The translations under genes were made by a program, and so were the position numbers. The notes under the pieces were generated by a model that saw nothing but the letters and a program-made list of their open reading frames with translations, was not told where the DNA came from and ran no database searches. Of a stretch of 64,000 nucleotides of DNA, positions 13,059 to 53,220 are shown in pieces. Numbering within the stretch: position 1 is the first letter of the stretch; every line of letters begins with the position of its first letter. Source of the DNA: a virus; IMG/VR virus record IMGVR_UViG_3300021389_000010, positions 18,426 to 82,425 of that record; one strand, 5' to 3'.

Positions 13059-13086
13059 TCAAGTCTTCATATACTGGGATTACTAA

Positions 13087-15186: not shown

Positions 15187-15221
15187 TAAGAGGTATATTT
15201 GCAACAGTAGCAATCTAAAGT

Positions 15222-17654
15222 ATGGACAACGAATACACAAATGGACAATCCTCATTTCCAGATCCTTTATCTGGTGTTGAGGAGAAGATGTCTAAGCAAT
15301 ATGGTCTGCAATATGCAAAGGCTATGTTTGCGCAATGGATTGGAAGTGACTATCAAAACTCATTGTATGGAAGACGCAACAGCGAAATGGAACGCTGTAG
15401 AGATTATGCGCAAGGAACACAAGACACATCTATCTATCGTCAGATATTAAACTCTCTCGACAACAACAATGGTGATGGAACATTGATGACGCTAGACTAT
15501 ACGCCAGTTCCTATTATACCTAAGTTTGTTAAGATTGTTGTAAACAAAATTCTTTCAAAAGAACCATACCCTCAGATTGAGGCCATTGACCCCCTTTCAA
15601 GAACAGAGAAGGATAAGAAGAAAAACGCTACCGTCTTGCGTATCGAGAATCGAGATATGATTGAGGAAGCGAAGTCACTAGGCCTGCGTGTTAAACAAGA
15701 CCCTGGACAACTACCAGACACACCAGAAGAAACTGAGATATTCTTAGACACAAACATTAAGACGGACGCAGAAATCTCTGCTCAGATTGCTACTGAGATG
15801 ACATTGAAGTGGAATGACTTTAATCAATCTATATACCGTCGCTGTGTTGAAGACCTAGCAACTCTTGGTATGGGTGTTGCTAAAAGAAGCAATGACCCCA
15901 ACTATGGAATCAACGAGGAGTATGTTGACCCAAAGAAATTTATACACAACTATACAGACGACCCAACATTCTCTGACCTAACCTATGCTGGTCATTTTAA
16001 GTACATAACAATCATGGACTTAAAGCGCATTGCTGGTAACCAGTTTACAGAGCAAGAGTATGAGGAGATTGCTAAGACTGTAATGAACAAGTATGGGAAC
16101 AACCCTACTCAGTTCTCTACAACAGGATCTGGTTACGACAGACCCGGTACAAGATATCGCCAAGGATATGATGAGTACAAGATAGAGGTAATGGACTTTG
16201 AGTTTATGTCTGTTGATGATATCATATACGAGAAGAAAGAGTCGGCATACGGAAACATAGGTTTCTATTTTAAAGGAAACGAATATAACGCACCTCAGCA
16301 ATCTGTATACAACAGAGAAGCAATATACATGAAGAACGCTACGGTATATGGCGGTACTTACATTGTGGGTACAGAGAAGTTGTATAACTACGGGCCAAAG
16401 AAAAATATACCTAAGAACGTACATGATATTTCACGTGCTCGTTTATCATATAGTATTGTAGCAACTAACATCCGTGGGATGATACCTAAGTCAATGGTAT
16501 CCTCTGTTATAGGGTTTGCTGACATGCTCCAGATTACACACTTGAAACTTCAGCAATCTATTGCTAAAGCAAAACCAGATGGACTCATCATTGATATTGA
16601 AGGGTTAGAGAACGTACAACTAGGACGCGGTGGTGAACTACAGCCATTAGAGATTCAAGACATCTACGAACAAACTGGTGTGTTCTATTACCGTAGCAAG
16701 AATCCAGAGGGAGGTTTTCAAAACCCACCCGTCAGAGAGATAGGTAATAATATTAGAAACATACAAGAACTTGTTTCTCTTTACAATCACTACCTACGAA
16801 TGATAAGAGATGCCACTGGTATCAATGAGGTTATGGATGGAACCACTCCGAAAGGAGAAGCCTTAGTAGGTGTAAACCAAATGGCAGTGCAGGCTGGAAA
16901 TAACGCTATATACGACATCACTAATGCCGCGATGGTTCTTTACCAAAAGGTGTGTGACGATATTGTTCGCTGTCTACAGGTAATACCACCAGATAGTATA
17001 TTGTATAAAGTATATACAAATGCCGTGGGAGAAACCAATATGGCTGTGCTTAGTTCTTTTGATAACCTATCTATGTACAACTTCGGCGTGGTGGTTGTTA
17101 CTGAGATGAACGAAATGGACAAGCAATACCTAGAACAAAACATACAGATTGCTCTTGGACAAAAAGAAATTGACCTTGAAGATGCGATTGCCATTCGTCA
17201 GATTAAAGACGTGGAACAAGCAGAGAGACTCTTGGTGGTTCGCAGAAAGAAAAGAATCAAACAACAACAAGAGATGATGGCGCAGCAGGCTCAGATTCAG
17301 TCTCAATCAAATCAGCAAGCCTCACAGGTAGCCGCTCAAATGGAGATGCAGAAAAAGCAACTCGAAGCCCAAATCGAAGCACAGCGGATTCAATTAGAGA
17401 CGGAAGCCAAAGCGCAACTCATACAACTAGAGTATCAGTTCAAAATTCAAATCGAACAACTTAAAGGAGAGTATGGCGTAGTTGAGCAACAAGTGGAAAG
17501 CGGAGTTCGTATGCAGGCTGATGCTGAATCAGAAAATCGTAAAGATCAGAGAATAGATAAACAAGCGTTGGCTCAAAGTAAACTGATTGCTCAACGCCAA
17601 GGCGAACGCCCACCTCTTAGTGAGGATATAGTAACCAACCTAACAATATCATAA
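15222..17654 (+). CDS. portal protein
   Basis: 810 aa after terL; PVPIIPKFV, RDATGINE and a Gln-rich coiled-coil C-terminus. Confidence 0.85.
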   Translation: MDNEYTNGQSSFPDPLSGVEEKMSKQYGLQYAKAMFAQWIGSDYQNSLYGRRNSEMERCRDYAQGTQDTSIYRQILNSLDNNNGDGTLMTLDYTPVPIIPKFVKIVVNKILSKEPYPQIEAIDPLSRTEKDKKKNATVLRIENRDMIEEAKSLGLRVKQDPGQLPDTPEETEIFLDTNIKTDAEISAQIATEMTLKWNDFNQSIYRRCVEDLATLGMGVAKRSNDPNYGINEEYVDPKKFIHNYTDDPTFSDLTYAGHFKYITIMDLKRIAGNQFTEQEYEEIAKTVMNKYGNNPTQFSTTGSGYDRPGTRYRQGYDEYKIEVMDFEFMSVDDIIYEKKESAYGNIGFYFKGNEYNAPQQSVYNREAIYMKNATVYGGTYIVGTEKLYNYGPKKNIPKNVHDISRARLSYSIVATNIRGMIPKSMVSSVIGFADMLQITHLKLQQSIAKAKPDGLIIDIEGLENVQLGRGGELQPLEIQDIYEQTGVFYYRSKNPEGGFQNPPVREIGNNIRNIQELVSLYNHYLRMIRDATGINEVMDGTTPKGEALVGVNQMAVQAGNNAIYDITNAAMVLYQKVCDDIVRCLQVIPPDSILYKVYTNAVGETNMAVLSSFDNLSMYNFGVVVVTEMNEMDKQYLEQNIQIALGQKEIDLEDAIAIRQIKDVEQAERLLVVRRKKRIKQQQEMMAQQAQIQSQSNQQASQVAAQMEMQKKQLEAQIEAQRIQLETEAKAQLIQLEYQFKIQIEQLKGEYGVVEQQVESGVRMQADAESENRKDQRIDKQALAQSKLIAQRQGERPPLSEDIVTNLTIS

Positions 17655-17655
17655 G

Positions 17656-18054
17656 ATGTCTTGCTCCTGCTCAACAAGCCAATGTTCCTGTGGAGACCCC
17701 ACAAACGTAAATTTGAATAACGCTGCACAAGTAAATATATGTGCCCGTCGCGGTGATACTTTTCAATTAGACGCCCAAGTAAAGGACTCTGATGGAACGG
17801 CATTAGACCTAACACTGTACACGTATAAAATGGAAGTCAGAGAGTATGATGACGGCCCATTAATTATACCTAGTACAGACATAACAATTAGCGGCACCAA
17901 TGTTGGTGCTTTAACTATTTCTATTTCCGCTACAGATATGCAGGTAGAGCCCGGTACTTATGTGTACGGCCTGCAGGCTACACTGATTTCAGACTCTAGT
18001 GTAGACACATGGTTCTATGGAACCTTTGATGTAGTGCAGGATATAGTGCAATAA
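17656..18054 (+). CDS. Ig-like/BppU-like fibre adaptor protein
   Basis: RRGDTF...DLT.Y...GTYVY pattern; directly before the fibre gene. Confidence 0.55.
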   Translation: MSCSCSTSQCSCGDPTNVNLNNAAQVNICARRGDTFQLDAQVKDSDGTALDLTLYTYKMEVREYDDGPLIIPSTDITISGTNVGALTISISATDMQVEPGTYVYGLQATLISDSSVDTWFYGTFDVVQDIVQ

Positions 18055-18067
18055 CAAAACAAAACCA

Positions 18068-23437
<5,370 letters not shown>

Positions 23438-29580: not shown

Positions 29581-29874
29581 TTATATTCTAGAGATAGTAG
29601 TTGTCTCTCTTCGTCCGTACCAAACGTGGTAGGAGATTCTCCACTTTTTGTGATAGAAGATTCTACTGTGTCCATTCAAATCTTCTACAATCCTGTGCGG
29701 TTGTGCTAACTGCATCTCTGTAGGTAGGTCAACATAGTCGATGTGAACAATGGTGTCTCCAGGAAATGGGATTGACAATTCGTACTCGTATCCTGCTGCT
29801 AAATCGAGGATACTTTCTTGTGCATTTGCTGCTACTCCAGTAAGGAGTAATAGGCTCATAATTAAATGTTTCAT
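29581..29874 (-). CDS. putative secreted protein
   Basis: Signal peptide MKHLIMSLLLLTGVAANA-Q (Bacteroidota-type Gln after cleavage). Confidence 0.7.
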   Translation of the reverse strand: MKHLIMSLLLLTGVAANAQESILDLAAGYEYELSIPFPGDTIVHIDYVDLPTEMQLAQPHRIVEDLNGHSRIFYHKKWRISYHVWYGRRETTTISRI

Positions 29875-29954
29875 AATAAATCGGTTAAAATTTCACTGCA
29901 GTAAACATAGTAATTCCTTTTTAACTTTGCAACAATCAGTTAAATTTTTTTGAA

Positions 29955-31133: not shown

Positions 31134-32519
31134 ATGGCAAATTCGTACCCTCCGGTATTTAACGACAACAAAGCAGCGGTATTCCGTCGCCTTGACCCAG
31201 CGAAGTACACTTCGTTGGCTGATTTCATTGACGAAATCAACGCACCAGATAACCGTGACCAATTGGTTAAGACCTATGGTTACCAGCAAATCTCTGGTGG
31301 ACTTACAGGTTTCTTAAGTCTTACAGGTGCAGTACGCGCAAGCGGAACTGCTGACGCTGTACAGTACTGGGAAGAAACTCGTCTACACTCTTACGCTTCA
31401 GTTAACTTGGCAGCAACAGCGGCATCAGCGGCTACTACCTTGACTTTAACTAAAGCAACAAGTGATGCTAACGTATTGCGTTTGAACGACGTTGTATTAT
31501 GGAACGGCAAAGAGCGTGGTATCGTAACTGCTATCTCTCCAACAGGTGAGATTGGTCACGCTGCTACTGCTTCTTACACTGTTGAGATTCTAAGTGGCAA
31601 CATCGGTGCAACTGCAGCGACTGGTGCTTACAACCTTCCAGTAATCGGTAACTTGTTCGCTCAAGGATCTGATCAGAACGCTGGTTACCTAGAGTCAAAC
31701 GTAATCAAGCGTACAAACTCTTACAACATTATCAAGGAAGTATTCAAGGTTACAGGTTCTCAAGCAACTAACATTGGTTGGGTTAACGTAGGTAACGGCG
31801 ACTACCGCTGGTACGTAAAAGGAGAAATGGACACTCGTGCTCGTTTCCTCGACAAGCGTGAAATGATGTTGTTGCTAGGTGAGACAATCACCAATACATT
31901 GACAACTACAAACATCGGTGGCAACCCAACAGCGGGTGAAGGTTACTTCGCTGCTATCGAAGACCGTGGTATTGTACAAGATGGTGAAATCACTACGTTC
32001 ACTCAAATGGACACGTTGATTGAAACACTAGACCAGCAAGGTGCTGCTCCAGAGTACGCTATGTACGTAAACTCTTCTCAAGCATTAGAGATTGACGACA
32101 TGGTTGCTTCATTAAATGGTGCTGCAGGTTTCACTAACGTAACCACTGGTATCGGTGCATTCGGTGGACGTGGATCAGAACTTGGTTTCGACTCATTCAA
32201 GCGTGGTGGATACACATTCCACAAGCACTCTTGGAAATTGTTGAACGAACCAACACTATTAGGTTCTGCGAACGCACACTACTTGGGAGCAATGATTCCG
32301 TTAACAACTGTTGTTGATCCTAAGACAGGCGATCGTGCTGCTGCTTTGGAGTTAAACTACAAAGACACTAACGGTTACTCTCGCGAAATGGAGCACTGGA
32401 TGACAGGTTCTATCTTAGGTGTAAACAACACCAACGAAGATAGCCTTCAGTTCAACTACCGTTCTGAGTGTGCATTGGTTACTCGTGCAGCAAACCAACA
32501 CATCCTTATCACTGCATAA
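31134..32519 (+). CDS. major capsid protein
   Basis: 461 aa, strong codon bias, follows the scaffold gene and is followed by a terminator. Confidence 0.8.
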   Translation: MANSYPPVFNDNKAAVFRRLDPAKYTSLADFIDEINAPDNRDQLVKTYGYQQISGGLTGFLSLTGAVRASGTADAVQYWEETRLHSYASVNLAATAASAATTLTLTKATSDANVLRLNDVVLWNGKERGIVTAISPTGEIGHAATASYTVEILSGNIGATAATGAYNLPVIGNLFAQGSDQNAGYLESNVIKRTNSYNIIKEVFKVTGSQATNIGWVNVGNGDYRWYVKGEMDTRARFLDKREMMLLLGETITNTLTTTNIGGNPTAGEGYFAAIEDRGIVQDGEITTFTQMDTLIETLDQQGAAPEYAMYVNSSQALEIDDMVASLNGAAGFTNVTTGIGAFGGRGSELGFDSFKRGGYTFHKHSWKLLNEPTLLGSANAHYLGAMIPLTTVVDPKTGDRAAALELNYKDTNGYSREMEHWMTGSILGVNNTNEDSLQFNYRSECALVTRAANQHILITA

Positions 32520-32534
32520 GGAGAACAAACATCG

Positions 32535-32563
32535 GAGGGGGGCGTTGCCCCTCTCCTTTTTTT
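32535..32563 (+). terminator. intrinsic terminator after the major capsid gene
   Basis: GGAGGGGGGC-GTT-GCCCCTCTCC followed by a T-run. Confidence 0.8.
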
Positions 32564-32583
32564 AATTATTTAATTCTATTAAA

Positions 32584-33384
32584 ATGGCAACACAAGCAAA
32601 GGCTGCACCTGCGGCAAATAAAAAGACTGCGCCCAAGAAGGGTTACAGCGCTATCAAAAAAACCCCTACCGCTCCATCACAGAAGGTGTACGAGATTATC
32701 AAAGGTGGAGGTATCATATTCAAACTAAGAACAGAGGCAACAGTATTCGACGCAGAGTCAAACACTGTGCGTGCTATTAGATACTGCCCAGGGGAGTCTA
32801 GTATTTATAAGGAAGAACAAAGCCCAAGTGCTAGACGTTCTCATATTGCTTTCAATAACGGATTACTTGCGGTGAACGTGTCACAACCAAACCTCATGGA
32901 GTTCTTAGACAAGCACCCAAGCAATGTGGCTAATGGTGGTAACAAATTCAAACTTGTCGACAACAGCACAGACTCTGAAGAACAAGTAGAGCAAGAATTT
33001 TTAACACACGATGCTATTGCGTTGGTTCGCAATAAAGACTCTGATGAGATTTTATCGGTAGCGATTGCCCTTGGCATCAACATCGAGCAGAAGATGATTG
33101 AGATTCGTCGTGAGTTACTGAGAGAGGCTAAAACAAACCCCGCTCAGTTTATATCAATGTTCGATGACCCACGTGTAAAAGTACGTTCCGCTGTTATTCA
33201 AGGATCAGACTTCCAGATTTTGGCAGCAAAGCCAGACGGAGTATATTGGTTTGACAGCGGCAGATTAATTCTATCAGTTCCTGCAGGGCAGGATCCTGTA
33301 GATATTATGGTTCGTTTCTGTCTCACTGAGAAAGGCGTTCCGGTTTACGAAGAACTCCTTTCTAGATTAGAAAAACTTTCGTAA
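32584..33384 (+). CDS. conserved phage protein (head module)
   Basis: 266 aa; IRYCPGE.SI and FL..HP.N..NGG motifs. Confidence 0.8.
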   Translation: MATQAKAAPAANKKTAPKKGYSAIKKTPTAPSQKVYEIIKGGGIIFKLRTEATVFDAESNTVRAIRYCPGESSIYKEEQSPSARRSHIAFNNGLLAVNVSQPNLMEFLDKHPSNVANGGNKFKLVDNSTDSEEQVEQEFLTHDAIALVRNKDSDEILSVAIALGINIEQKMIEIRRELLREAKTNPAQFISMFDDPRVKVRSAVIQGSDFQILAAKPDGVYWFDSGRLILSVPAGQDPVDIMVRFCLTEKGVPVYEELLSRLEKLS

Positions 33385-33393
33385 GTTTGTCTT

Positions 33394-33466
33394 ATCTCAG
33401 TACATAGGCATAGTAATGAGAATCGGTTAATGCAAGAAAGGGGGCCCCGTAAGGCCCCCTTTTTTA
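33394..33466 (+). ncRNA. candidate small RNA
   Basis: Own TAAGTTTG element (33382-33389), 5' hairpin TCTCA-G-TAC-ATAGGCATA-GTA-A-TGAGA, terminator GGGGGCC-CCGTAA-GGCCCCC-T6, no ORF. Confidence 0.6.
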
Positions 33467-33497
33467 TTCGTATATTTGCTACAAAGCCTCAAGGCAT

Positions 33498-34250
33498 ATG
33501 GCAAGTGTAGAAAGAGTATATAAAGCAGTAAAAGATATAGCGAACAAAGACCAGAGAGGGTTTATAACTCCCTCTATATTTAATCAGTTCGCAGGTGTGG
33601 CACAGATGAATCTGTTCAACAGATTGTTTGATGATATATCAATGGCAAACAGAATGCGCCGCATGGCTATTGATGGCCCGCGTCAGTTTGCCTTCTCAAA
33701 AAAAGTAGAGGAAGACCTATCGACCTTCGCTAAGAAGGTTGAATTAACCCTTTCGAGCGGAACGGTTGCTAAACCAAGTGACTTTGCACGTGTCATATCT
33801 ATATCAACTATAGGGAAAAAGATTCTCGGTGTACAGAAGCAGTCACTAGTATCTCTTGTATACAATGAAGACCACATTGACAGAATACTTAACAGCGATT
33901 TATCAGCACCCTCTGATGACGCTCCTGTCGCTCTAATAGCAAACGACATAGAGGTATTTCCAAATGTGAATACGAGCATCGCTAAGATTAACTTAAGATA
34001 TTACAAAGTACCACAAGGCATTCTTCCAGACACTGGTGCAAAGACATCACAGTCCCCTAAGTTTGGTTATACTTCATCTGTTGCTGGTGTAGAGATTTAT
34101 TCTTCAGCCAATAGTGTGGACTTTGAATTACCAGAGCAGTACTTCACTGAACTCGTCAACGAGATACTTACACTTGCTGGTGTAAATTTACGTGACAGCG
34201 ATGTGTACAACTACGGCTCTTCAGAAACCACTAAAGACGAAAGTAGATAA
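33498..34250 (+). CDS. tail adaptor/ring protein
   Basis: Position after the head module; NKDQRGFITP..FN and DFELP motifs. Confidence 0.65.
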   Translation: MASVERVYKAVKDIANKDQRGFITPSIFNQFAGVAQMNLFNRLFDDISMANRMRRMAIDGPRQFAFSKKVEEDLSTFAKKVELTLSSGTVAKPSDFARVISISTIGKKILGVQKQSLVSLVYNEDHIDRILNSDLSAPSDDAPVALIANDIEVFPNVNTSIAKINLRYYKVPQGILPDTGAKTSQSPKFGYTSSVAGVEIYSSANSVDFELPEQYFTELVNEILTLAGVNLRDSDVYNYGSSETTKDESR

Positions 34251-34993
34251 TGAGCCAGGCATACGTTACAGTAGATAAAGTAATCAACGATTACATCATG
34301 AGTGTGGATATGGATGACTACGGGTCAGCCGCATCTGATTATATGTTACGTCAATACGCGTTGCGAGGCATACGTGAATTTGGATTTGACATGTCTCATA
34401 ATATTAAGACAACTCTGTTGGACGTAAACCAATCGCTAGGCACAGTTGATTTACCCTCTGACTTCGTGGAGATGGTTAAGATTGGTCAACTTGGAAACGA
34501 TGGGTTGGTGTATGTGTTTGCAGAAAACCCCAACATGAACATACTACCAGATCAACCCGCTGATGCTATTCCAGATTATCTACTTGGTTTTGACTCCTAT
34601 GTTTTTAGAAACTTTTTATATGAGAATACAATGGGTCGCCTCTACGGTCTTGGCGGTGGTCAAGGTGCTGGTGAGTACAGAATTAACTGGGAAGAATGTC
34701 GGATAGAGATATCACTTGTATCTAATACAACACAAGTTGTTCTTGAGTATATATCAGATGCAGCCAAATGCGACAATCCTTGCGTCCCTGTTTTTGCGGA
34801 GCAAGCATTACGCGCATATGTTTACTACCACACAATACAACGCAAGGCCAGCGTACCGGCTAACGAGAAACAGCGGGCACGTGCAGAATACTATAATGAA
34901 AGACGCCTGGCTAACGCAAGGCTCAAGTCCTTTAATAAGTTTGATGCATTGAGCGTTACCCGCAGAAACTTCAAACTAAGCCCTAAAGCGTAA
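34250..34993 (+). CDS. tail tubular/ring protein
   Basis: LPSDFVE.VKI and VVLEYISD motifs; position. Confidence 0.65.
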   Translation: MSQAYVTVDKVINDYIMSVDMDDYGSAASDYMLRQYALRGIREFGFDMSHNIKTTLLDVNQSLGTVDLPSDFVEMVKIGQLGNDGLVYVFAENPNMNILPDQPADAIPDYLLGFDSYVFRNFLYENTMGRLYGLGGGQGAGEYRINWEECRIEISLVSNTTQVVLEYISDAAKCDNPCVPVFAEQALRAYVYYHTIQRKASVPANEKQRARAEYYNERRLANARLKSFNKFDALSVTRRNFKLSPKA

Positions 34994-42693: not shown

Positions 42694-45600
42694 TGGAAGA
42701 CGAGCAGTTATTAGAAGCACTTGAGTCCGCGTACAATAGAGGGGTAACCCTTGAGCAGATGCAGGGTAAACTTAGCGATGACGCAATGGTTGTCGCACAA
42801 GATTTCTTTTCAAAAAAAAAAGATGGTACCGAAGATTCTCAGATCGCCAGTCCTTCGGTATCAGCATCAGAGCCTTCGGTAAACGGTACGGTATCTCTAT
42901 CTACTCGACTCGACTCTGATTCAAAGGCGGTTTCTTCTGGTTTGTTAGATGCTGTAAAGTCAGCACAGGAACGCGGTGTTACCCTTGAGCAAATGCAGGG
43001 TAAGTTGTCTGATGACGCGTACAATTTAGCCAGTCAATACTACAAAACCATAGAGTCTCAACGTCCTGTTAATCGCAAGATGAAAGACCACTGGTTAATC
43101 ATTGACGATAACCCAAGTGAGTTAGGTAGATTGTGGAATCGCGCTGTATCTGGTGGTATTCTTGCTAACGAAATACAAGAGGCAGAAATCACAGGGGTGA
43201 TGGACTACGAAAAGATAGCCTACCTCAACAACATAGTTCAAAGAGACGCACCAAAAGAAGAAGACTACCTATACGACACCGATAATCCTGTAGGTAGTTT
43301 TGTGCTTGATGTAATACGCACTATACCAGAGTCATTAATCTCTATGGCTACTGCGTATGAGACTGGTGTCAGAGGTGCAGCGGCAGGTGCTGGTGTAGGT
43401 GCAGGAGTAGGCTCTGTTATTCCCGGTGCAGGTACAGCGGCAGGTGCAACTACTGGTGCTATAGCAGGATACTTTGGTGGAACATCATTGGCTCTTGAGT
43501 ATGGTCATTCTATTATGGATGTACTTCGTGAGGAGGGCGTAGACGTCACTTCTCCAGATCAACTAAGGGAAGCATCACGTGACCAAAGAATAATGTCTAA
43601 GGCACGAGAGAAAGGCCTCAAGCGTGGTATCCCTATCGCGGTATTCGATGCTATATCGGGGGGTACTGCGGGTAAAGTAGGTAACGTACTCGTAAAATCT
43701 GTAGGTAAATCAGCGACAAACAGAGCCATGAAGGTGGCTGCGGCAGAAACCTTGGTTCAAGCAGGGCTTGGGGGTACTGGTGAGTTTGCGGGACAGGTAA
43801 TATCGGGTGAGGAAATCAGACCAAGAGACATAGCACTCGAGGCATTCGCTGAGTTAGGCCCAGCAGCACCCGTAATGGCCTACAATCTTGCAGGTCGCAT
43901 CGGTAAAACACCTGGTGAATTATCATACATAGACTGGGCAAAAGAACAGGATCAGAAGAAACTCTCTGTAGCCAATGAGATATCTTTTGTGGCTAACAAT
44001 GGGGAGATTGCATCTATAGATAATGAGATTCAAAAACTTAGAGAGTCTAAGAAGAAAGACCCAACCACAAAGAAAGCCGTAGACGCTAAACTACAGCGAC
44101 TAAAACAAGAAAAGTACAGCCTACTTAGAGAAACCTCTGAGAGAGTTATGAAACTAGAGGGGGTACAAGAAGAAATAGCAGACCAGTTAACGCGTGACCT
44201 TAATGCAGCAGCGGCAGTATTAAAGGAAGGTAATATTACTGCGGAAGAAAAGGCTGCTATCGAAGAAGAGATGGAGCAGTCAGCCAAAGAGTTAGACCAG
44301 TTGCTGTCGGGCCAAACAGAAGAGCAAACACAAGCGCAACCAGATGATAAAAAAGTTAAGCCCGAAGAAGTACCAGGTGCAGAGCAAGTCGGGGAAGAAC
44401 TTGGGGACGTACCCAAGTCGGAAACAAGCAGAGCGAAGGCTCAAATTAGTGGAATACTTCAAGCACGCCAAGAAGAAGTAGGTAGAAAATCAAGAAGTAA
44501 AAGTGTAGCCGACGCGCTGACTGATTTTAAATACAACAGAGACAGGAAGAAAGGAGTTTTCTTTAACCTGTTTGATAAGAACGACGCGGGTGCATTGCGA
44601 ACAATGCTGGAGGAAGGAAAATATAGCGACGGTAAAAGGATACCTATAAAAGAACAGCGGATACTAAGCAAACTTGTGTTAGCAAGTGAGGCCTACAGAC
44701 TTTTGAATCCAGACTCTAAAGATTTCAATGTAGGGTTTGGAAGAAAGGGTTTCTACGCAGCGGGTAAAGCGGCTGGCTTTAAAAAAGCAGATTTAAAAAA
44801 TGCTGCTGGTATAACCTCTGGTAGAGTAGGCACTAAAGACGCTCCTATTATAGTGTCTATACCATCCGCAGATGAATCCCTATCTCAGAGAGGTAAGGTA
44901 GATAGATATACAGCAGAAGGCACTGCGTATCATGAGGTTTACCACAAGATATTCTCAAAGTTTTTTAACGACAGACCTATTGACTTCAATCAGTTTAGGA
45001 AACTTGTGATTCGTAGGTTAAGCGAGAGCAATGTCAAGGAGTTAAATGCTTTTGCGGAGCGATACATGGAGCGTGAGGATGGAGAATCTGCTGGTGCTTA
45101 CAAGTCAGAGGAATTTATGGTTCAACTTGGTGGCTTACTCGGTAGTGAAAGAATTGTTTTTGAAGCATCTTTTCTCGAGGAACTCAAAGCGTTTTTAAAT
45201 GGTGTCGTAAGTAAGATAACAGGCAATCGTGTACAGATATTTGAAGAGGCTGGTCTGGCTAAAGATATTTCTGAGTACATGAAAGGAATGAGTAAGGCTG
45301 TACGTGCTGGTGCAGACATCAGTCAAGTACCTATGGCCGAATCCTTGCAGACAGAACGCTTTCAAAGAGAGCGACCAACGACTACGGAAAAAACAGAGAA
45401 GGACGAGTACGGGTTTGAAAAGCCTACGGGCGAGATGGATGTAGAGCCAAGTAAAAACGTGGCAGGTATACCAGATCCAGAGAACTACGACAAGACCTTT
45501 GATCCTCTAGAAAAACTAACCGGAATTCTAGGCCCTAAACTAAACGCATTAGCAAAGAAACTCGAGAAGGTTCTTGGTATAGACAGGCTTAGAGGAACAC

Positions 45601-48467
45601 GTAGAGATGTGCTTCAAGCATTGGAGATTTCGGAGTCTATAAACGTACAGCACATTAATAGATTTTACCTTGCGTTGCGTCAGATAAATAAGATAACAAA
45701 TAAGTTACCAGACGAGCAGAGACAAGAGGTGGCTGACCTGTCTAATGACTATCTGTTTGGTGCAAAGGAAGAGACAAGACGAGAAGCCTTCGATAAACTG
45801 CAAGAAATAAACCCCGAGTTGATGAAACAACTTGGAAGATTAACAGCGATACGTGCTTCTATGCAGGAGTCTATACAGAACAGCGCTGTCTTTGATAACC
45901 TAAGCAGTGAATTGCAGGAGACTATTATAGATAACACAGCGTCATACGGCACAAGAACATATCGTGCGTTTACTGATCCCAACTTTAAGTTCGACCCACA
46001 ACTAAGAGCAGCCGCTGAGAAATCTATGGTAGATGCCATGATATACGACATCGCTTTTGACATATATGAAAACGACAACTTCACTGATGAAATGTTTGAG
46101 GAGATGGAGGCAAGGAATCTTGATATGAATGAGTTAGATGACATTGTTCAGTTCGTAGAGACAACTCAGATAGAAGAGGTTAAGAACAGGGTCAAGGATA
46201 GTCTAAGAAACATAGAGGCAGCATCACGAGAATCTCAAGGTAGATATGGCGAAGGCTTGGCAGGCACTAAAGACTTGGGTAAACTAAGAATACCTACTAA
46301 GAAATTAAAACAGCGTCAAGACTTACCTATTGAGTTGATGGACTACATGGGCGTAGAGAAAGACCCATACATTAAGTTCAGTCAAACCGTTGCTACTCTT
46401 ACCAACATGGTGCAACAGTTCACACTGGTGGATAGAGTAAATGAGATTGCACAGCGTAGTGACCTTGGGGATTTAATTGTTACTACTCCGATTGTACGTG
46501 CCATCATGTCTAAAGACCCAGAGAAAAGACTTGGTGTAAGGGTTCCTCAAATTGCACGTGACATGGGCCTTATGGGTAAGGAAGAGTCCTTTGATGATTT
46601 CTATACAAGAACAGGTGGTCAACTAATAGATGGTCAAACCCCTGCGTTTCCTTCAGATCGTATTGACTACATCGAAGACAAACTAAAGGATTACTTTCTA
46701 GAGAACTATACGGTTATTGAGGAGAAGAAATCTCCAATGAGCGGCAAGGCTGTGAAGAATGACTTCGTTAGCATGCTGAAGCAAACACCGATGTATCAGT
46801 CTGACAACAAGGTTCTTCAAGGATACTATAAACTTCTGTTACAGATGCGTCGTGTGCGTGTACTATACAACCTACCTACCTGGAGAAAGAACATCATGGG
46901 TGGTTGGTATTTCTTAGGAGCAAACTTTGTGCTTCCATTTAATAAGCACAGAGGAGGGCTTACTGCAATGGAAGACTTGAGGAACAGGTTCAAGAAAATG
47001 AAGGACGGTGAGTTAGATCCAGAGTATGAAAAAATTCTTGACCGCATGGGAGAACTTGGATTGCTTGGCTCATCTCCAAACATGGGTATGTTTAGTGACA
47101 TCAATGATTCATTCATCCAGCAATTGGAAGGTGTGTCGCCAGAGTTAGCGTGGAAGTGGTTACCAGCAGGGGTGAAAAAAGCACAGCAGGAACTAGGTAT
47201 AAAGGCAGCACGTACCGCCTATCAGTATGGATTCATTGATGACTATACCAAGATGATTGCTTACCTCACTAAGCGTGAGAACTTCGCTAAGAGACTTGAG
47301 TCTAATCCCGAGGGTAAGTCATACGATGAACTTTCTTTTGCTCAGAAGCAGCAGGTGGACGAGATGACAGCCGAGCGTATCAAGCAGAACATGCCTACCA
47401 TGTCTCGTATACATCCGTCATTACGCAATCTATTTAAGTTACCTGTTGGTGACTTCCTTTCGTTCCGTGTGGAAGCCTTCCGTAGTTTCTTTAGCATCTA
47501 TCGTAATGCAGTTGCAGATCTGGGACAGGCTATGACTAACGAGAACCTAACCAAATCACAACGTGGTGCGTACATGACAGATGGTGCAGGTACACTAAGC
47601 ATGGGGCTCGCACTTGCCGGCTTATCTAAGGTAGGGTATCAAGCCATAGCAGGTTTGTTATTGAAGGACGACGAGGAAGATGAACTTGGACAACAAGCAA
47701 GGTCTACTAATTATGTATTACCTCCATGGATGCAGGGCTCAAACATTGTCGCTGTAGGGATGGACAAAGACGGTAAGATTCGATTTGCTAACATGAGTTC
47801 GGAAGACCCATACGATGAATTGCAAGGGCTTATATATGGACGTAACGGTATATCCAGAAGCAATATGCTACAAAGTATAGCCGCTGATTTCAAAGACCCT
47901 AACCTTGCAGCGCGATTACTCTTTAATCTTGTTGATGGAAAGGACTCTTATGGACGGCCAATCCTTAGTAACGATGACGTAGGTTGGTTCCACAGGTACA
48001 TCATTGGGCCTAACCTAACGGAGTGGTCAGATGCTTATGGTTCTTATATCTTTAAGGAGACTTTTATACCGCCTAACTTTAACTACATCGCTCGTGCATA
48101 TCGCAAGCGCATGAAGGAAGCGAAGGAAAACCCAGACATAGAGTTGCAACCCCTTGAAACAGCGGCTGAGTTATCTACTGCCGTAATCTTTAGAGACTAT
48201 CCTGTTGATATAGCAAGACAGTTCTACTACAATATGAGCGAGCAGAATTTCCGCAAGCCTTACACCTCATTGAGTGATGCAGAAAAGGTCAACAGACAGG
48301 TGCGGTTGGATGAGATAAAGAGAGCGTATCAATTCGCTGCTAATTATTCTGCTAAGTTTGGCAACTACAGTATCATCTCTAGTGTAGAGAGCACTATTGA
48401 CAGGACGTTTGCTAAGAGCCCAGAGGAGGCTATGTATGTGAAGTACGACCTCGAACTTCCCAAATAG
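42693..48467 (+). CDS. large ejection/internal virion protein
   Basis: 1924 aa; Gly/Ala membrane-like segment, HEVYH zincin-like motif, duplicated N-terminal motif. Confidence 0.7.
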   Translation: MEDEQLLEALESAYNRGVTLEQMQGKLSDDAMVVAQDFFSKKKDGTEDSQIASPSVSASEPSVNGTVSLSTRLDSDSKAVSSGLLDAVKSAQERGVTLEQMQGKLSDDAYNLASQYYKTIESQRPVNRKMKDHWLIIDDNPSELGRLWNRAVSGGILANEIQEAEITGVMDYEKIAYLNNIVQRDAPKEEDYLYDTDNPVGSFVLDVIRTIPESLISMATAYETGVRGAAAGAGVGAGVGSVIPGAGTAAGATTGAIAGYFGGTSLALEYGHSIMDVLREEGVDVTSPDQLREASRDQRIMSKAREKGLKRGIPIAVFDAISGGTAGKVGNVLVKSVGKSATNRAMKVAAAETLVQAGLGGTGEFAGQVISGEEIRPRDIALEAFAELGPAAPVMAYNLAGRIGKTPGELSYIDWAKEQDQKKLSVANEISFVANNGEIASIDNEIQKLRESKKKDPTTKKAVDAKLQRLKQEKYSLLRETSERVMKLEGVQEEIADQLTRDLNAAAAVLKEGNITAEEKAAIEEEMEQSAKELDQLLSGQTEEQTQAQPDDKKVKPEEVPGAEQVGEELGDVPKSETSRAKAQISGILQARQEEVGRKSRSKSVADALTDFKYNRDRKKGVFFNLFDKNDAGALRTMLEEGKYSDGKRIPIKEQRILSKLVLASEAYRLLNPDSKDFNVGFGRKGFYAAGKAAGFKKADLKNAAGITSGRVGTKDAPIIVSIPSADESLSQRGKVDRYTAEGTAYHEVYHKIFSKFFNDRPIDFNQFRKLVIRRLSESNVKELNAFAERYMEREDGESAGAYKSEEFMVQLGGLLGSERIVFEASFLEELKAFLNGVVSKITGNRVQIFEEAGLAKDISEYMKGMSKAVRAGADISQVPMAESLQTERFQRERPTTTEKTEKDEYGFEKPTGEMDVEPSKNVAGIPDPENYDKTFDPLEKLTGILGPKLNALAKKLEKVLGIDRLRGTRRDVLQALEISESINVQHINRFYLALRQINKITNKLPDEQRQEVADLSNDYLFGAKEETRREAFDKLQEINPELMKQLGRLTAIRASMQESIQNSAVFDNLSSELQETIIDNTASYGTRTYRAFTDPNFKFDPQLRAAAEKSMVDAMIYDIAFDIYENDNFTDEMFEEMEARNLDMNELDDIVQFVETTQIEEVKNRVKDSLRNIEAASRESQGRYGEGLAGTKDLGKLRIPTKKLKQRQDLPIELMDYMGVEKDPYIKFSQTVATLTNMVQQFTLVDRVNEIAQRSDLGDLIVTTPIVRAIMSKDPEKRLGVRVPQIARDMGLMGKEESFDDFYTRTGGQLIDGQTPAFPSDRIDYIEDKLKDYFLENYTVIEEKKSPMSGKAVKNDFVSMLKQTPMYQSDNKVLQGYYKLLLQMRRVRVLYNLPTWRKNIMGGWYFLGANFVLPFNKHRGGLTAMEDLRNRFKKMKDGELDPEYEKILDRMGELGLLGSSPNMGMFSDINDSFIQQLEGVSPELAWKWLPAGVKKAQQELGIKAARTAYQYGFIDDYTKMIAYLTKRENFAKRLESNPEGKSYDELSFAQKQQVDEMTAERIKQNMPTMSRIHPSLRNLFKLPVGDFLSFRVEAFRSFFSIYRNAVADLGQAMTNENLTKSQRGAYMTDGAGTLSMGLALAGLSKVGYQAIAGLLLKDDEEDELGQQARSTNYVLPPWMQGSNIVAVGMDKDGKIRFANMSSEDPYDELQGLIYGRNGISRSNMLQSIAADFKDPNLAARLLFNLVDGKDSYGRPILSNDDVGWFHRYIIGPNLTEWSDAYGSYIFKETFIPPNFNYIARAYRKRMKEAKENPDIELQPLETAAELSTAVIFRDYPVDIARQFYYNMSEQNFRKPYTSLSDAEKVNRQVRLDEIKRAYQFAANYSAKFGNYSIISSVESTIDRTFAKSPEEAMYVKYDLELPK

Positions 48468-48485
48468 GATACTTATATTTGTAGA

Positions 48486-48686
48486 ATGGAAAGATTAAAG
48501 AAATTATATTGTTGGCTAGCCGTAAAGGTTTTTAAAAGAAAAAGTAAATACTGCGAAGGCAAGAGCGACAATGGCTCGGGGGCTAGTTCCCCGTCTGGTT
48601 CGTCTGGTTCATCGGGTTCCTCTGGCTCATCTGGCTCATCGGGTTCCTCTGGATCGTCTGGTTCTTCGGGATCATCGGGCAAGTAA
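48486..48686 (+). CDS. small protein with a (Gly-Ser-Ser)n tail
   Basis: 66 aa after TATATTTG; about nine GSS repeats with varied codons. Confidence 0.6.
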   Translation: MERLKKLYCWLAVKVFKRKSKYCEGKSDNGSGASSPSGSSGSSGSSGSSGSSGSSGSSGSSGSSGK

Positions 48687-48919
48687 TGAGTTGGAAAGAA
48701 ATATTTAAAGACAGCAATGACTGGAACGAGAAGAGTATTCTCGGTGCGCTTTCATTTGCTGTAATGGTTTGTGTCATGACGCTTGATCTGGTAACAGGTG
48801 CGTTAGGAAAGGATTTAGTAATCAATGAAGGTGTCTACAACTCTTTCGTGTACGTCACGATAGGATGTTTTGGAATTGCTGGATTAGAAAAATTTGCTAA
48901 GTCCGGTGGAGATAAATAA
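48686..48919 (+). CDS. holin-like membrane protein
   Basis: 77 aa with two hydrophobic segments. Confidence 0.6.
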   Translation: MSWKEIFKDSNDWNEKSILGALSFAVMVCVMTLDLVTGALGKDLVINEGVYNSFVYVTIGCFGIAGLEKFAKSGGDK

Positions 48920-49187
48920 AGAAATATCAGAGGACACAGTAGTAGGGCTATCACTAAAGACCGTTGGTATGATTATCGGCGGCGCAGTGATAGTTAGCCT
49001 TGGATACTTTGACCTAAAGGCTGAGGTGCAAGAGGCAAAAGAATTACCTGCACCAGTGATAGGAAGAACAGAGTACGACTTAAAAGATGAGTTGATACGC
49101 ACCACAATCATGAACACCAAGTCGGATGTTGATGACATCAAGAAGCAACTAGACAAAATAGAGGGGCGTCTCTTCGAGATGAAATGA
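48894..49187 (+). CDS. membrane protein with coiled coil
   Basis: One TM segment then a heptad pattern; start uncertain. Confidence 0.6.
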   Translation: MLSPVEINKEISEDTVVGLSLKTVGMIIGGAVIVSLGYFDLKAEVQEAKELPAPVIGRTEYDLKDELIRTTIMNTKSDVDDIKKQLDKIEGRLFEMK

Positions 49188-49516
49188 AAAAGGCTGCCCT
49201 CGCCATAGCATTCACCCTGCTGTGTGCCTTCAAGGTACCGATCAGGGGATTGGTGGTGGTTCATTATAACGCTGAGTTTAATTCTAGCAACAGCGTACCA
49301 TTAAAAAAAATTAGTGACGCCCGGGTTATCGACGCATGGATTGATGATGCTGAGGTTAAAGAATACGCAGACATAAAGTCTGTTCCTACAATAATACTTT
49401 ACGAAAACGGTAAAGAGATACAGCGGTGGGAGCCAGGTCTTTCGTTAAGCCTTTCTGTTACACACCAGGATATACAGGATGTCATTGATAAAATAACTGG
49501 AGCAAGTAAATTCTGA
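49184..49516 (+). CDS. secreted thioredoxin-fold-like protein lacking CxxC
   Basis: Signal peptide; IKSVPTIILYENGKEI resembles the thioredoxin cis-Pro region. Confidence 0.6.
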   Translation: MKKAALAIAFTLLCAFKVPIRGLVVVHYNAEFNSSNSVPLKKISDARVIDAWIDDAEVKEYADIKSVPTIILYENGKEIQRWEPGLSLSLSVTHQDIQDVIDKITGASKF

Positions 49517-50595
49517 TGAGAAACATACTAATTACTTTCTTTGTACTGTCCTCCATATTCTCCCAGGCACAGGTGGTGGGGGGTATATTTAAGTACGCTA
49601 CATTTTACACGAGTGCTTTTGCTTCTTCACCAATGCCTGCTCAAAAAGAATACTATGTAACTCAAGGCGGGGATCTTCAAAACATAACTATAGAGAATCC
49701 GTTTGATTATAAGGCAACCATAGGAGTACGTAGGGTTGCTCGGTATGACTATGAGAACAGACAGAACAGGTTCTATGACGGACAAACAGAGTCTACAACA
49801 GCGTTGTCTGCTACAGTTGGTTCTGTGAAGGGACTTGAATACCTTGCTCAGTACGACGTGGGTCGTCAGCAAGGGTCAGCATACGTAAACCAAAGATACT
49901 TCCTTAGATACCTTGCTAAATACTTTATGGTAAAGGGCGAGTACTATAGTCAAGGGCTTGTTGATTTGAATTATACGCAAGTAGAATCAAGACTAAGATT
50001 ACATATAGGTGAGTTAGATTTTTCAGCAGGTGTTGCCGGGCGTTTACACAGGTCATATGGATATAATCCAATAGCAGACTTCTTAGCACACAACCCTTGG
50101 TGGGACTTAGTACGCAACATGGGTTATGAAGACGTCTACTATGGCATTGATTACGACAATGATGATGAGATAGATAACGGCGACTGGTTCTGGTTAGACC
50201 CAGAAGGGGAGAAGGTTGCTGATACCGATGAAGACTTCCGCAGATATATCTACCCTGGTATCGTAAATGAATTCAACAAACTTAGCATAGATAGTGTTGG
50301 TCTTATTCAGTCTGTGTCTGCGATAATTGGGGTAGACTATTATCACTATGAGGATGACTTTTGGATACACTCTTGGTTAAACATTCTTCCTTACCACATG
50401 CACGTAGGTGACAAAGAAGAGTTTTCTTATAGCAACTACGTAGATGGGAATCAATGGGTTGACTACAGTACAGGTATTGTTTTCGGTTGGAAGTTAGGTA
50501 AGCGATGGGGTATATTTACTGAAGGTGAGTATATGAAGTACTGGGATAGAAATATCTTTAACCTAAGAGCAGGTATTAACTATCAATTTAGATAA
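49516..50595 (+). CDS. putative outer-membrane beta-barrel protein
   Basis: Signal peptide ending AQ, Tyr/Trp-rich strands, C-terminal LRAGINYQF. Confidence 0.6.
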   Translation: MRNILITFFVLSSIFSQAQVVGGIFKYATFYTSAFASSPMPAQKEYYVTQGGDLQNITIENPFDYKATIGVRRVARYDYENRQNRFYDGQTESTTALSATVGSVKGLEYLAQYDVGRQQGSAYVNQRYFLRYLAKYFMVKGEYYSQGLVDLNYTQVESRLRLHIGELDFSAGVAGRLHRSYGYNPIADFLAHNPWWDLVRNMGYEDVYYGIDYDNDDEIDNGDWFWLDPEGEKVADTDEDFRRYIYPGIVNEFNKLSIDSVGLIQSVSAIIGVDYYHYEDDFWIHSWLNILPYHMHVGDKEEFSYSNYVDGNQWVDYSTGIVFGWKLGKRWGIFTEGEYMKYWDRNIFNLRAGINYQFR

Positions 50596-51012
50596 ATGAA
50601 ATGGCTAACCGGATTAATCATAGCGCTATTGTTAAGCAGTTGCAGCGCTCAATGGCACCTAAAAAAGGCAGTCAAGAAAAACCCCAGTCTATTAAGCAAA
50701 GACACGGTTGTTGTTACGGATACGATTGTAACTGCTCCGGTCTCGGTGCGTGATACTATAACACTTCAACAGCGGGACACTATTACTATTACTAAGGATA
50801 GGCTTAAAGTAAACATTGTACGTTCGTTCGATACTATCATGGTAGATGCAATATGTGAAAGCGATACTATTGTACAGGTAATAGAAGTACCTGTGCCATC
50901 CCTCGTTATGAAGGACAGCAACAGGTGGTACAACAAGGTATACAAGATTTCTTTTTACCTTTTGTTACTTCTACTTCTTCTTCGTTTCTTCCGGAAGAAT
51001 CATATAATTTAG
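50596..51012 (+). CDS. lipoprotein, unimolecular spanin-like
   Basis: Lipobox LLLSSC, DT-rich beta region, C-terminal TM ISFYLLLLLLLL. Confidence 0.65.
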   Translation: MKWLTGLIIALLLSSCSAQWHLKKAVKKNPSLLSKDTVVVTDTIVTAPVSVRDTITLQQRDTITITKDRLKVNIVRSFDTIMVDAICESDTIVQVIEVPVPSLVMKDSNRWYNKVYKISFYLLLLLLLLRFFRKNHII

Positions 51013-51014
51013 GA

Positions 51015-51113
51015 TCAACTTCCGCAGGCTTCACAGTCTGAAGGGTTCTCAAAATTACACGTTGGTTGTTCAGCGGACTCAAGTTCCGATACGAATGATT
51101 CGAAGTCTTCCAT
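51015..51113 (-). CDS. 32-aa acidic CxxC peptide resembling the RNR alpha C-terminal tail
   Basis: Manual translation MEDFESFVSELESAEQPTCNFENPSDCEACGS*; upstream TATCTTCG element and leader hairpin. Confidence 0.7.
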   Translation of the reverse strand: MEDFESFVSELESAEQPTCNFENPSDCEACGS

Positions 51114-51178
51114 AATGGCTTTAAAAAGGTTTAACCCCCACGAAATTGCGGGAACTTCGAAGATACAAAATACCTTGA

Positions 51179-51688
51179 TTAGGGTTTCAATTCGTAATAA
51201 GGTGAGTATGCGTATCTTAGGTTCCAGCCTCTTACTTCTGCTGGTGTAAAATCGCCTACAAGGTAATCTTCGGGTGAGGTAAACAGTATAAATACTACTA
51301 TATCAGAGACCTCTTTATCGATTGCATATTTGTTTGCCTTGAATGTATTCTCACAAGTCTTGATACTGATCTTCTGAGTCTCTCCATTCTTTACTACATG
51401 AATGTCCGGATCATCTGTTACATCCTTTGTTTGTTTCAACAGCGTAGACACTGTGTATCTTGAGTACTCTGGTGTGATCTCATAGTAGTACCTTACTAAC
51501 AACTCTCCAAGTATACCTAAGTATTCAGTATAATATTCACGAGGTACCTCACCCAGTAGTAAGGATTTTTTAGTCCCGGTTCTCTGCTTGTTTGTCCCCT
51601 CATATCTTTTCTTATTCGCTTCTATTCTTCTGAGAGTTAAGTCGTCAGAATATTCCTTTAGATAAGACGGGATAGGTAGCCGGTTCAT
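51179..51688 (-). CDS. hypothetical protein, possibly PD-(D/E)xK fold
   Basis: GILGE...PDI...ISIKT pattern. Confidence 0.6.
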   Translation of the reverse strand: MNRLPIPSYLKEYSDDLTLRRIEANKKRYEGTNKQRTGTKKSLLLGEVPREYYTEYLGILGELLVRYYYEITPEYSRYTVSTLLKQTKDVTDDPDIHVVKNGETQKISIKTCENTFKANKYAIDKEVSDIVVFILFTSPEDYLVGDFTPAEVRGWNLRYAYSPYYELKP

Positions 51689-52659
51689 GACAATCCTTTT
51701 AAGCGTTCTTTATTAAGAGTTGATAGATCATAGTGTTCCTTGACGTACTCATATAGATTGTTAGCCAGCCTCCATGCTTTAGTCATATTCATATCCTTGA
51801 TCTCTCTGCGCCAGTCAGACTGAGACTTACAAAGTATGCCGGTTTCGTTATGTATGATTACCTCTTTATAAGGAGTGACACTGCTTGCTATAATTGCAGT
51901 CTTAGTGTATCCGGCTTCAACTACTTTCAATTCTGATTTACATCTATTGAATACACTCTTCTTTAGTGGAGATAGTGATACATCAAAGAACTTGTACAGT
52001 TGTGCGTATTGAGTTATGTCTACGGGGTTCATACGATACTTAGCCTTTAGTCTGTCGGCATAGTCCATGAGATTCATGCTGTATAATTCGTAGTCTTCAA
52101 AGGTCATACCCATCTCATCAAGATCTTTCTGGTGACCATTAGCACCAAGGTATCCAAACCTTACTTTGAAATCCGGACTTGCATCTTTCTGTTGATCTGC
52201 CCACTGCTGTTCTTTTTCATATACCGTATTAGGAATAAGCCTATAAACAGCGCCAGGATTAATCTTCTTCATCATTGTAATAAGATACGACGATGGTGAC
52301 CAGATCTCATCTGCTATTTTAATTGTATTGGTAATATTAGGACCTTCCTTTTTTTTGTAATGTTCATACGCTGGATTATCTTTAGGTAGATTCCAGTAGT
52401 CATCGTTATCAAGAATAAGTTTGATGTCATTATTCTTTAAGAACTTTTTAAATTCTTTGTGATCAGATACACTGCACCTTCTTGATACCACAAGGTTTTT
52501 TATTTGAGACAAGTCCCACTCCTTCATCTCATTGAAGTCCTCAAAGAAATGGATCTGTAATCCTTCTTCTTCTTTAAGTCTTAGGAACGGAGTCATTAAC
52601 CTATGATAGTTAATACCGTTTAGTCCATCAAGATAAATCAGTGTCATCATAATACTCAA
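51685..52659 (-). CDS. glycosyltransferase (GT-B fold)
   Basis: YHRL..P, DNDDYW, HQKDL, SPL...FNRCKSELKVVEAG and IIASSV.PY motifs. Confidence 0.8.
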   Translation of the reverse strand: MSIMMTLIYLDGLNGINYHRLMTPFLRLKEEEGLQIHFFEDFNEMKEWDLSQIKNLVVSRRCSVSDHKEFKKFLKNNDIKLILDNDDYWNLPKDNPAYEHYKKKEGPNITNTIKIADEIWSPSSYLITMMKKINPGAVYRLIPNTVYEKEQQWADQQKDASPDFKVRFGYLGANGHQKDLDEMGMTFEDYELYSMNLMDYADRLKAKYRMNPVDITQYAQLYKFFDVSLSPLKKSVFNRCKSELKVVEAGYTKTAIIASSVTPYKEVIIHNETGILCKSQSDWRREIKDMNMTKAWRLANNLYEYVKEHYDLSTLNKERLKGLS

Positions 52660-53210: not shown

Positions 53211-53220
53211 GAATATAATA

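Follow-up and report, generated by a model that had tools for sequence, protein, structure and literature searches.

The 64,000-nucleotide window analysed here (bases 18426-82425 of the 82,425-bp record IMGVR_UViG_3300021389_000010 of an uncultured marine phage, referred to as G000; 42.5% G+C) carries a short non-coding element on its + strand, in a 113-nucleotide (nt) gap between a late-module gene (32584-33384) and a virion structural gene (33498-34250, phrog_14543). The upstream gene, also on the + strand, encodes a protein of 266 amino acids (aa) that matches phrog_34748 (E 2.9e-57), a family without a named function, and a Pfam search of this protein found no family. It is preceded by a capsid-like gene (31134-32519, + strand, phrog_13704). 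An original prediction had described positions 33382-33466 as a unit without an open reading frame (ORF) but with its own box and terminator, and had proposed that it encodes a small RNA (sRNA) with two seeds antisense to the starts of minus-strand genes. The description of the unit holds. No ORF of at least 30 aa occurs in 33385-33497 on either strand, the box TAAGTTTG is present, and the region folds as a hairpin, a linker and a terminator.

Between its predicted start at A33394 and position 33465 the RNA would be about 72 nt long, with the hairpin, the unpaired linker and the terminator following each other in that order. The predicted fold has a minimum free energy of -28.6 kcal/mol (z -4.2), and none of 200 shuffled sequences was as stable. 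Hairpin 1 (33395-33421) is predicted to consist of an outer stem (33395-33399/33417-33421) and an inner stem of 3 bp (33401-33403/33413-33415) closing the 9-nt open loop AUAGGCAUA (33404-33412), in which AGGCA has an unpaired probability of 0.9-1.0. The first proposed seed, CATAGGCATAGT, does lie at 33403-33414, but it had been taken as hairpin loop over its whole length, and this is true only of AUAGGCAUA; C33403 and G33413-U33414 are paired in the inner stem. The second, AATCGGTTAA, was also placed correctly at 33421-33430. It falls in the linker (33420-33433, unpaired probability 0.76-0.99), which contains GAATCGGTTAA (seed 2) and whose 12 unpaired nt carry UCGGUUAA. The intrinsic terminator (33434-33465) has 13 bp, with a G+C core at 33440-33446/33453-33459 and a T-run at 33460-33465. 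One standard terminator scan gave no terminator at 33436-33463, but folding and a second, dedicated scan both show it, and it combines a G+C-rich stem-loop and a U run with compensatory change. The window has nine strong terminator-like hairpins, both strands counted; this one has a TAnnTTTG box at most 160 nt upstream without an intervening gene start, and the other eight do not.

Relatives were collected by a flanking protein, which gave 15 and then 80 IMG/VR loci, together with 39 metagenome loci, many of whose contigs duplicate IMG/VR entries. Roughly 219 relatives were counted, 80 loci were taken and the intergenic region was read in 47 of them (L094-L140), the 33 most distant (L141-L173) being set aside. 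No near-identical phage was found by megablast among 50,697 phage records. The body of the RNA is 34/40 identical (85%) to that of L096 and of L100, whose proteins are 77-78% identical, while in the same comparison third codon positions (100 codons on each side) are 43-58% identical and the leader of the next gene matches at 13/19 to 13/20 positions. Eight distinct sequences of the type found in the window (type A) were available. Among these, one pair of the 5-bp outer stem differs at both bases in G006 (U-A instead of C-G), and another pair of this stem occurs as G-U, A-U and G-C; the G-U pairs of the hairpin are valid on the + strand only. Three pairs of the terminator stem are likewise changed on both sides among relatives. 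The loop core and linker, both predicted to be unpaired, are conserved in all eight variants save for one G/A position and one 1-nt insertion; TCGGTTA is invariant in 8/8 and TCGGTTAA is kept in 7/8. Given this conservation of the body, the covariation of the stems and the strand on which the G-U pairs are valid, we conclude from base changes among relatives that the element is an RNA under purifying selection, read from the + strand. It is very probably a real, conserved and structured RNA module.

The slot between the stop codon and the terminator holds at least six unrelated cassette sequences in relatives with at least 62% protein identity (flanking genes 62-78%). In the 47 IMG/VR loci, type A was found ten times, types D and E seven times each and types C and F once each; type B occurs in six metagenome loci. 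Most of the 21 more distant loci run from the stop codon almost directly to the terminator, five run from the stop to the next box without a terminator, and a few have longer spacers. The resident terminator is thus present even in relatives without a cassette, and folding shows the hairpin-linker-terminator build in all six cassette types. In type E the stem has 10 bp, with three compensatory pairs around an invariant loop. The slot looks like an insertion site whose cassettes use the resident terminator.

An Rfam search gave no match at the gathering cut-off over the window. At the element there were 46 weak local matches driven by the terminator, the best with 21.2 bits against a cut-off of 80; FopS (18.7 vs 56), GibS (15.2 vs 115) and DapZ (16.2 vs 56) remained below their cut-offs, and the C4 RNA of phages P1 and P7 was absent from both the gathering and the weak matches. 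An 18-mer core of the element was found in ten IMG/VR stretches, nine from relatives and one from an unrelated 38.6-kb phage (G005). The latter match comprises 23 nt identical to the L003-type element without further similarity; these belong to a coding region of the opposite strand, an ORF of 134 aa (L069, 1205-1609), where they encode the peptide DSHYYAY. Given its coding context, its opposite strand and the end of similarity at 23 nt, it was rejected as a genuine relative and treated as probable chance; it could be chance or a trace of cassette origin.

On its right the unit is bounded by TATATTTG (33471-33478, + strand), a promoter-like box 20 nt ahead of the next ATG, which is likely the phage's strong late promoter. 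This box is kept in 44 of the 47 IMG/VR loci, including relatives without a cassette, and in all 37 loci of the metagenome survey with a readable stop, down to about 40% protein identity; the remaining three IMG/VR loci (L129-L131) have TATCTTTG in its place. Positions 33471-33483 read TATATTTG(C)-N4-A ahead of the virion gene, and similar boxes stand ahead of 15222, 27620 and 28937. The succession of a promoter-like box, a hairpin with a sequence-conserved loop, a terminator and a long late operon is also that of an antitermination or attenuation leader, where a phage factor on the hairpin would decide between a stop at 33465 and read-through into the 15-kb block of virion genes, and where cassette types could be specificity variants. 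In phage lambda, the 6S RNA (PR'-tR') and nut/boxB provide a brief, terminated transcript before the late genes and a hairpin whose loop sequence matters, and the element resembles these in having a terminator ahead of late genes and a hairpin with a conserved loop sequence. It differs from them in the separate conserved promoter-like box after the terminator. Because this box stands between the terminator and the next gene, read-through is not needed, and we consider such a leader very unlikely.

The box on the left, TAAGTTTG (33382-33389, + strand), is a candidate sigma-A -7 box of the form TAnnTTTG. It overlaps the stop codon of the upstream gene, the TAA at 33382-33384 being its first three bases, and transcription is predicted to start at A33394 (+ strand), five bases past the G of the box. 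The extended pattern TA-nn-TTTG-N4-A occurs in 18 of the 26 IMG/VR loci with a cassette (A 10/10, E 7/7, F 1/1, D 0/7, C 0/1) and in 0 of the 21 without one, and is kept in the B-type metagenome loci. The two free bases are AG, GA or AT in type A, AG in B, AA or GA in E and GA in F; D-type cassettes have TAGATTTA and the C-type cassette TAACTTAA where the others have TAnnTTTG. The four bases past the G are free to vary and the fifth is A in every variant that bears the box. An A at G+5 is seen too in the neighbouring late promoter of relatives with at least 62% identity. The sigma-A box of Flavobacterium psychrophilum spans -12 to -5, which places the start at G+5, and the box-to-start spacing predicted here agrees with those mapped flavobacterial promoters (PMC9723704). 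Of 697 called genes in ten genomes, 15 have a box that overlaps the stop codon, nine of them at this locus, so that the background is 6/688 other genes. The exact word TAAGTTTG is mainly intragenic (10 sites vs 4.0 expected), and the degenerate TAnnTTTG is the informative form. This pattern of conservation fits a Bacteroidota sigma-A promoter, and TAAGTTTG is a probable promoter with its start at A33394. That the element is in fact transcribed from a promoter of its own we regard as slightly favoured. If the promoter did not work, the element would still lie at the 3' end of late messages, and it is plausibly an sRNA embedded in the 3' untranslated region (3' UTR). As a separate observation, three E-type genomes (G011, G012 and G013) have a stop-overlapping TAAATTTG-CAAT-ATG after an 811-aa gene, where the predicted start is the A of the next ATG; this arrangement would give a leaderless message.

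An element acting in cis only would account for several of these features. Hairpin 1 would then be a signal for stability, processing or termination efficiency, the box would be inactive, and the complementarity to gene starts would be a coincidence favoured by two CAT triplets. The location between a stop codon and the terminator of that same gene agrees with this, as do the relatives without a cassette, which run from the stop straight to the terminator, and the C- and D-type cassettes, which keep a hairpin without the exact box. However, a stabilising hairpin needs its stem rather than a conserved loop and linker, and it is in the loop and linker that conservation is highest here. In addition, TTTG and the A at G+5 are retained amid intervening and surrounding bases that vary.

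The proposed target of the loop is a word at start codons. AUAGGCAUA is the mirror of AUGCYUAUG, and ATGCYTATG occurs ten times in the window compared with 1.08 ± 0.99 in shuffled sequences (largest shuffle 4; 0/100 reach 10). These copies comprise five starts of minus-strand genes, the element's own antisense and four sites inside + strand genes. Each of the five start tags places two in-frame ATGs on the start codon (2223, 3871, 5265, 62316 and 62837). At 2215-2223, ATGCTTATG begins a 195-aa gene behind a conserved leader of about 48 nt; the claimed pairing of the loop region with ACTATGCTTATG at the start of 1636-2223 was recovered with 12 bp and one G-U. At 3863-3871, ATGCTTATG begins a 295-aa gene with a leader of the same family, and the 15 bp with three G-U at this motif, predicted for the gene called at 2984-3892, were found as well. 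Upstream stop codons in relatives make the tag ATG the first ATG of this gene. At 5257-5265, ATGCCTATG begins a 448-aa gene (3919-5265) and, with T5266 included, TATGCCTATG at 5257-5266 gives the expected perfect 10 bp without a G-U; the ortholog of this gene in G019 has an in-frame stop directly upstream of the same tag. The predicted recurrence of the motif corresponds to ATGCTTATG at 62308-62316 and 62829-62837, the starts of a 102-aa and a 52-aa gene. Gene starts were taken from a simple ORF picker rather than a gene finder, and for two of the five tags its calls begin 21 and 30 nt further upstream. The label 'amidotransferase' given earlier to the product of 2984-3892 could not be confirmed, with no Pfam and no PHROG family; neither the 2984-3871 product nor the 448-aa protein matched a family in these databases at the thresholds used.

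The association of the word with starts extends to G006, whose first 20 kb contain four tags (0.32 expected), three of them on starts. At equal base frequencies, the probability of finding an exact mirror of this degenerate 9-mer by chance somewhere on either strand of the 2,835 intergenic nt is estimated at about 0.04. Furthermore, the variable base of the loop appears to track the tag variants in three A-type genomes: with loop G, G000 has four U and one C tags and G019 two C and one U, at least two of the G019 tags being on starts with in-frame stops just upstream, whereas G006 with loop A has three U tags. Tags on early-strand starts were found in none of six C-, E- and F-type genomes (G003, G011-G014 and G018). 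Of the conservation and covariation looked for in relatives, the former is present; as to the latter, the relation of loop G/A to tag C/U in these three A-type genomes stands against two orthologous starts in G006 and the D-type genomes (both described below). All five tags and the element share one absolute orientation on the duplex, as would a 9-bp motif CATARGCAT/ATGCYTATG bound by a phage DNA-binding protein. A site acting at the DNA level is nevertheless highly improbable, given that the tags coincide precisely with start codons, each supplying two ATGs in frame, that four more copies lie inside + strand genes at no special place, and that in the element the motif is a hairpin loop, the covariation of its RNA stem including G-U pairs valid on the + strand. 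Separately, the minus-strand leader of about 48 nt, which includes a small hairpin (GTGCG...CGCAC), is found at 2215-2262 and 3863-3911 ahead of two unrelated tagged genes. It occurs in eight IMG/VR contigs, sometimes swapped between genes, and only 12 nt of it match the RNA; a role in regulation or processing between cistrons is possible.

The linker has a candidate target of its own. The original prediction had the linker complementary to the leader of 29581-29874, and this was recovered: TTAACCGATTT (29878-29888, minus strand) lies at -14 to -4 of this 97-aa gene, whose product has a signal-peptide-like N-terminus, and could pair with the linker over 11 bp with one G-U. As TTAACCGA, the site falls within a 25-nt predicted leader, and it is syntenic, about 3.5 kb upstream of the element, in four of five A-type genomes (the window, G004, G001 and G006). 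A further leader match of TCGGTTA had been proposed near 6257, but the word at 6256-6262 is on the + strand inside a + strand ORF and is not a minus-strand leader. TAACC-like words were also considered as leader marks and rejected as too weak (6 vs 3.6 expected). Small genes with signal-peptide-like N-termini opposite late genes were seen in the window (29581-29874, the 97-aa one, inside the late block) and in G011 and G013; their leaders are complementary to the local cassette, either the A-type linker or the E-type loop ACCAACCA. The proteins p97, p105 and p108 showed no detectable homology beyond the signal-peptide-like N-terminal segment. In E-type genomes the complement of the E loop gave, besides the element itself, only sites with two mismatches (6 vs 3 for a reversed-pattern control).

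E-type genomes have an ortholog of the C-tagged 448-aa gene that encodes 531-535 aa (38% identity, E 5e-80). The leader of this ortholog is matched by the E-type RNA, through its unpaired 5' tail, over 13 bp with one G-U in G011, G012 and G013 but not in G014, a match found post hoc. The A- and E-type cassettes, unrelated in sequence, thus have matches at the start of one and the same orthologous gene (about 450-535 aa). This hints at a swappable sRNA slot in marine Bacteroidota podophages, each cassette supplying a host-type promoter and a hairpin, borrowing the resident terminator and exposing bases that would act as antisense key to short tags or leaders at the phage's own early-gene starts, although we rate so general a scheme as rather unlikely. 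E-type loops are invariant although start-tag enrichment is not seen for them. The presence of at least six unrelated cassettes in one slot between genes that are 62-78% identical is turnover typical of accessory or counter-defence loci, and the slot could be swapping fast-evolving accessory RNAs that act in trans on another partner, such as an mRNA or a defence system of the host, or a protein of either host or phage. No candidate partner and no Rfam family match point to this, and the mirror relation between A-type loops and tags would have to be chance; we think it unlikely.

The best single reading, which we hold tentatively, is that the RNA of about 72 nt pairs with the tagged start regions of the phage. 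The anatomy, purifying selection, stem covariation, box pattern, over-representation of the tag and mirror relation are observed, whereas the start site, a short transcript of its own, intracellular pairing, repression and its timing are inferred. The module at 33394-33465, which sits between a stop codon and a terminator that both belong to one late gene of the structural module, would form the 3' end of every late message ending at the terminator at 33465, and would probably also be made alone from the host-type sigma-A -7 box TAAGTTTG, starting at A33394. Its 9-nt loop AUAGGCAUA would pair with AUGCYUAUG on the start codons of five opposite-strand, presumed early genes, and its unpaired linker UCGGUUAA with the short leader of a sixth gene. 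Such pairing over start regions would most likely block ribosome entry and turn these genes down once late transcription is high.

The number of matches exceeds several controls. Ungapped helices with a score of at least 20 over the start codon were found at 8 of 87 translation initiation regions. Dinucleotide shuffles gave 1.5 ± 1.3 such helices (0/400 reach 8), random genomic 47-mers 1.6 ± 1.5 (0.5% reach 8) and 47-mers with at least two CAT triplets 2.2 ± 1.6 (1/250 reach 8). At the five tagged starts the duplex energy was -18.6 vs -10.5 kcal/mol, but this comparison is circular, complementarity having been the basis on which the tags were picked.

A number of results weigh against antisense pairing with the tagged starts. 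The minimum RNAduplex energy of -21.0 is no better than the shuffle mean of -23.1, 81% of 300 shuffles being equal or better, with identical values for T and U letters; the claim of complementarity above shuffled sequence holds nominally for helix counts and the excess of the 9-mer tag and not for energies. Among 882 windows in 24 intergenic regions, one other place (57158, + strand) also reaches 8 helices. By a rough count of about 120 independent intergenic 47-mers, so high a value is expected somewhere about four times in ten, a large family-wise chance that follows from the site having been chosen for its matches. The partial A-type relatives G004 (2 vs 0.6), G002 (0 vs 1.0) and G001 (1 vs 0.4) show no enrichment, in records that lack most early genes. 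In a cassette-by-genome matrix the cognate genome ranks 1, 1, 1, 3, 6, 1 and 7 of 7, with per-genome fractions of 0.14, 0.05, 0.08, 0.58, 0.86, 0.18 and 0.89, which is not significant overall; random 45-mers from the same genome rank first 16% of the time. The pairings themselves are short (9-12 bp) and mostly have a central G-U, which four of the five tags need in the 9-bp helix. An exact shared 8-mer start tag mirrored by the cassette was found in none of ten genomes, because the common tag requires a G-U.

Both genes with the longest matches (starts at 2223 and 3871) are accessory and absent in 5/5 related records, and the G006 orthologs of two other matched starts show no compensatory target change. 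The D-type genomes G016 and G017 have three and two tags, but their mirror is only partial (6-8 bp, UAAGCA plus wobble pairs). The seed-2 site is missing in G002 although seed 2 is kept there. At the promoter, TAAGTTTG differs from the phage's strong TATATTTGC. The Bacteroidota sigma-A consensus also includes a TTTG element at -33, and none is present here, the region 33358-33363 reading CTTTCT inside coding sequence; the neighbouring strong late box likewise lacks it. Lastly, 24 sequencing runs were found, all in the form of assembled contigs; four RNA runs among them gave 14 pieces on 32400-34400, none of them over 33377-33726, which speaks neither for nor against a transcript. The two-seed antisense claim is partly supported, by the tag excess and loop base for seed 1 and by the synteny of seed 2 in 4/5 genomes, and not by the duplex energies or the other cassette types. 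Non-significant energy-based and family-wise tests are what an element acting in cis only would give, but this would leave the tenfold excess of the tag and the loop mirror unexplained, and we judge it somewhat unlikely.

If the RNA does pair with the tagged starts, its layout would be closest to that of 3'-UTR-embedded sRNAs with their own promoter, and its logic closest to the two-seed C4 RNA. DapZ of Salmonella is reportedly such a 3'-UTR-embedded sRNA, with a promoter of its own and the terminator of the mRNA shared. Like RNAs of this kind, the element has a promoter-like box at the end of a coding region, no ORF, the terminator of the parent gene and short exposed seeds; it differs from them by a host phylum not known to have Hfq, its place in the late operon of a lytic-type phage, its Bacteroidota -7 box and the absence of sequence kinship, as seen from the low DapZ score. 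The C4 antisense RNA of phages P1 and P7 is about 75 nt long and acts in trans through two short complementary segments over a translation start. C4 is cut from a longer transcript and acts on a message of its own temperate phage, with a single immunity operon under its control; its seeds differ among related phages. The element shares with C4 its approximate length and two short segments complementary to translation starts of its own phage, but here several scattered genes share a start-codon tag.

Short words tied to start codons have a precedent in Cluster K mycobacteriophages, where a conserved word is associated with the start codons of a subset of genes (PMC3203893). The tag described here differs in that it includes two ATGs and is mirrored in a hairpin loop. 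The Cluster K sequences are said to lie upstream of the start, and we know of no mirror RNA for them. Phage sRNAs that regulate phage or host genes post-transcriptionally have been reviewed with examples from phages of Proteobacteria and Firmicutes, and the text of this review contains no occurrence of Bacteroid* or Flavobacter* (PMC12197685, 2025). The papers found described no sRNAs of Bacteroidota phages, and post-transcriptional regulation in these phages is almost unexplored. To our knowledge Bacteroidota lack Hfq and do not use initiation led by a Shine-Dalgarno sequence. A working antisense RNA would be a compact means of early-gene shut-off with one loop and one 9-base tag, a phage-specific code for translational shut-off in hosts without Shine-Dalgarno pairing or Hfq, and the alternative cassettes at a fixed slot would be natural specificity variants for following RNA-target co-change. 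If the element is only a 3'-UTR structure, this would show that a conserved box at a stop codon and a start-tag mirror can arise without function, and that candidates of this kind need 5'-end data.

The host of the phage is probably a member of the Bacteroidota (Flavobacteriia), since the product of the capsid-like gene (31134-32519) shares 28-33% identity with proteins from phages of Maribacter, Cellulophaga and Flavobacterium (none of 85 records reaches 60%) and TAnnTTTG boxes stand 12-44 nt ahead of about eleven genes in the window. With respect to the record itself, bases 1-18425 of G000 repeat the gene order of about 42700-59000 of the window at only about 70-75% identity, while these first 18 kb are 90-93% identical to a different relative, G004. 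Because the first 18 kb repeat a later gene order yet match G004 better, the 82-kb record appears to be either two strains joined together or a genome of about 57-62 kb in wrapped assembly.

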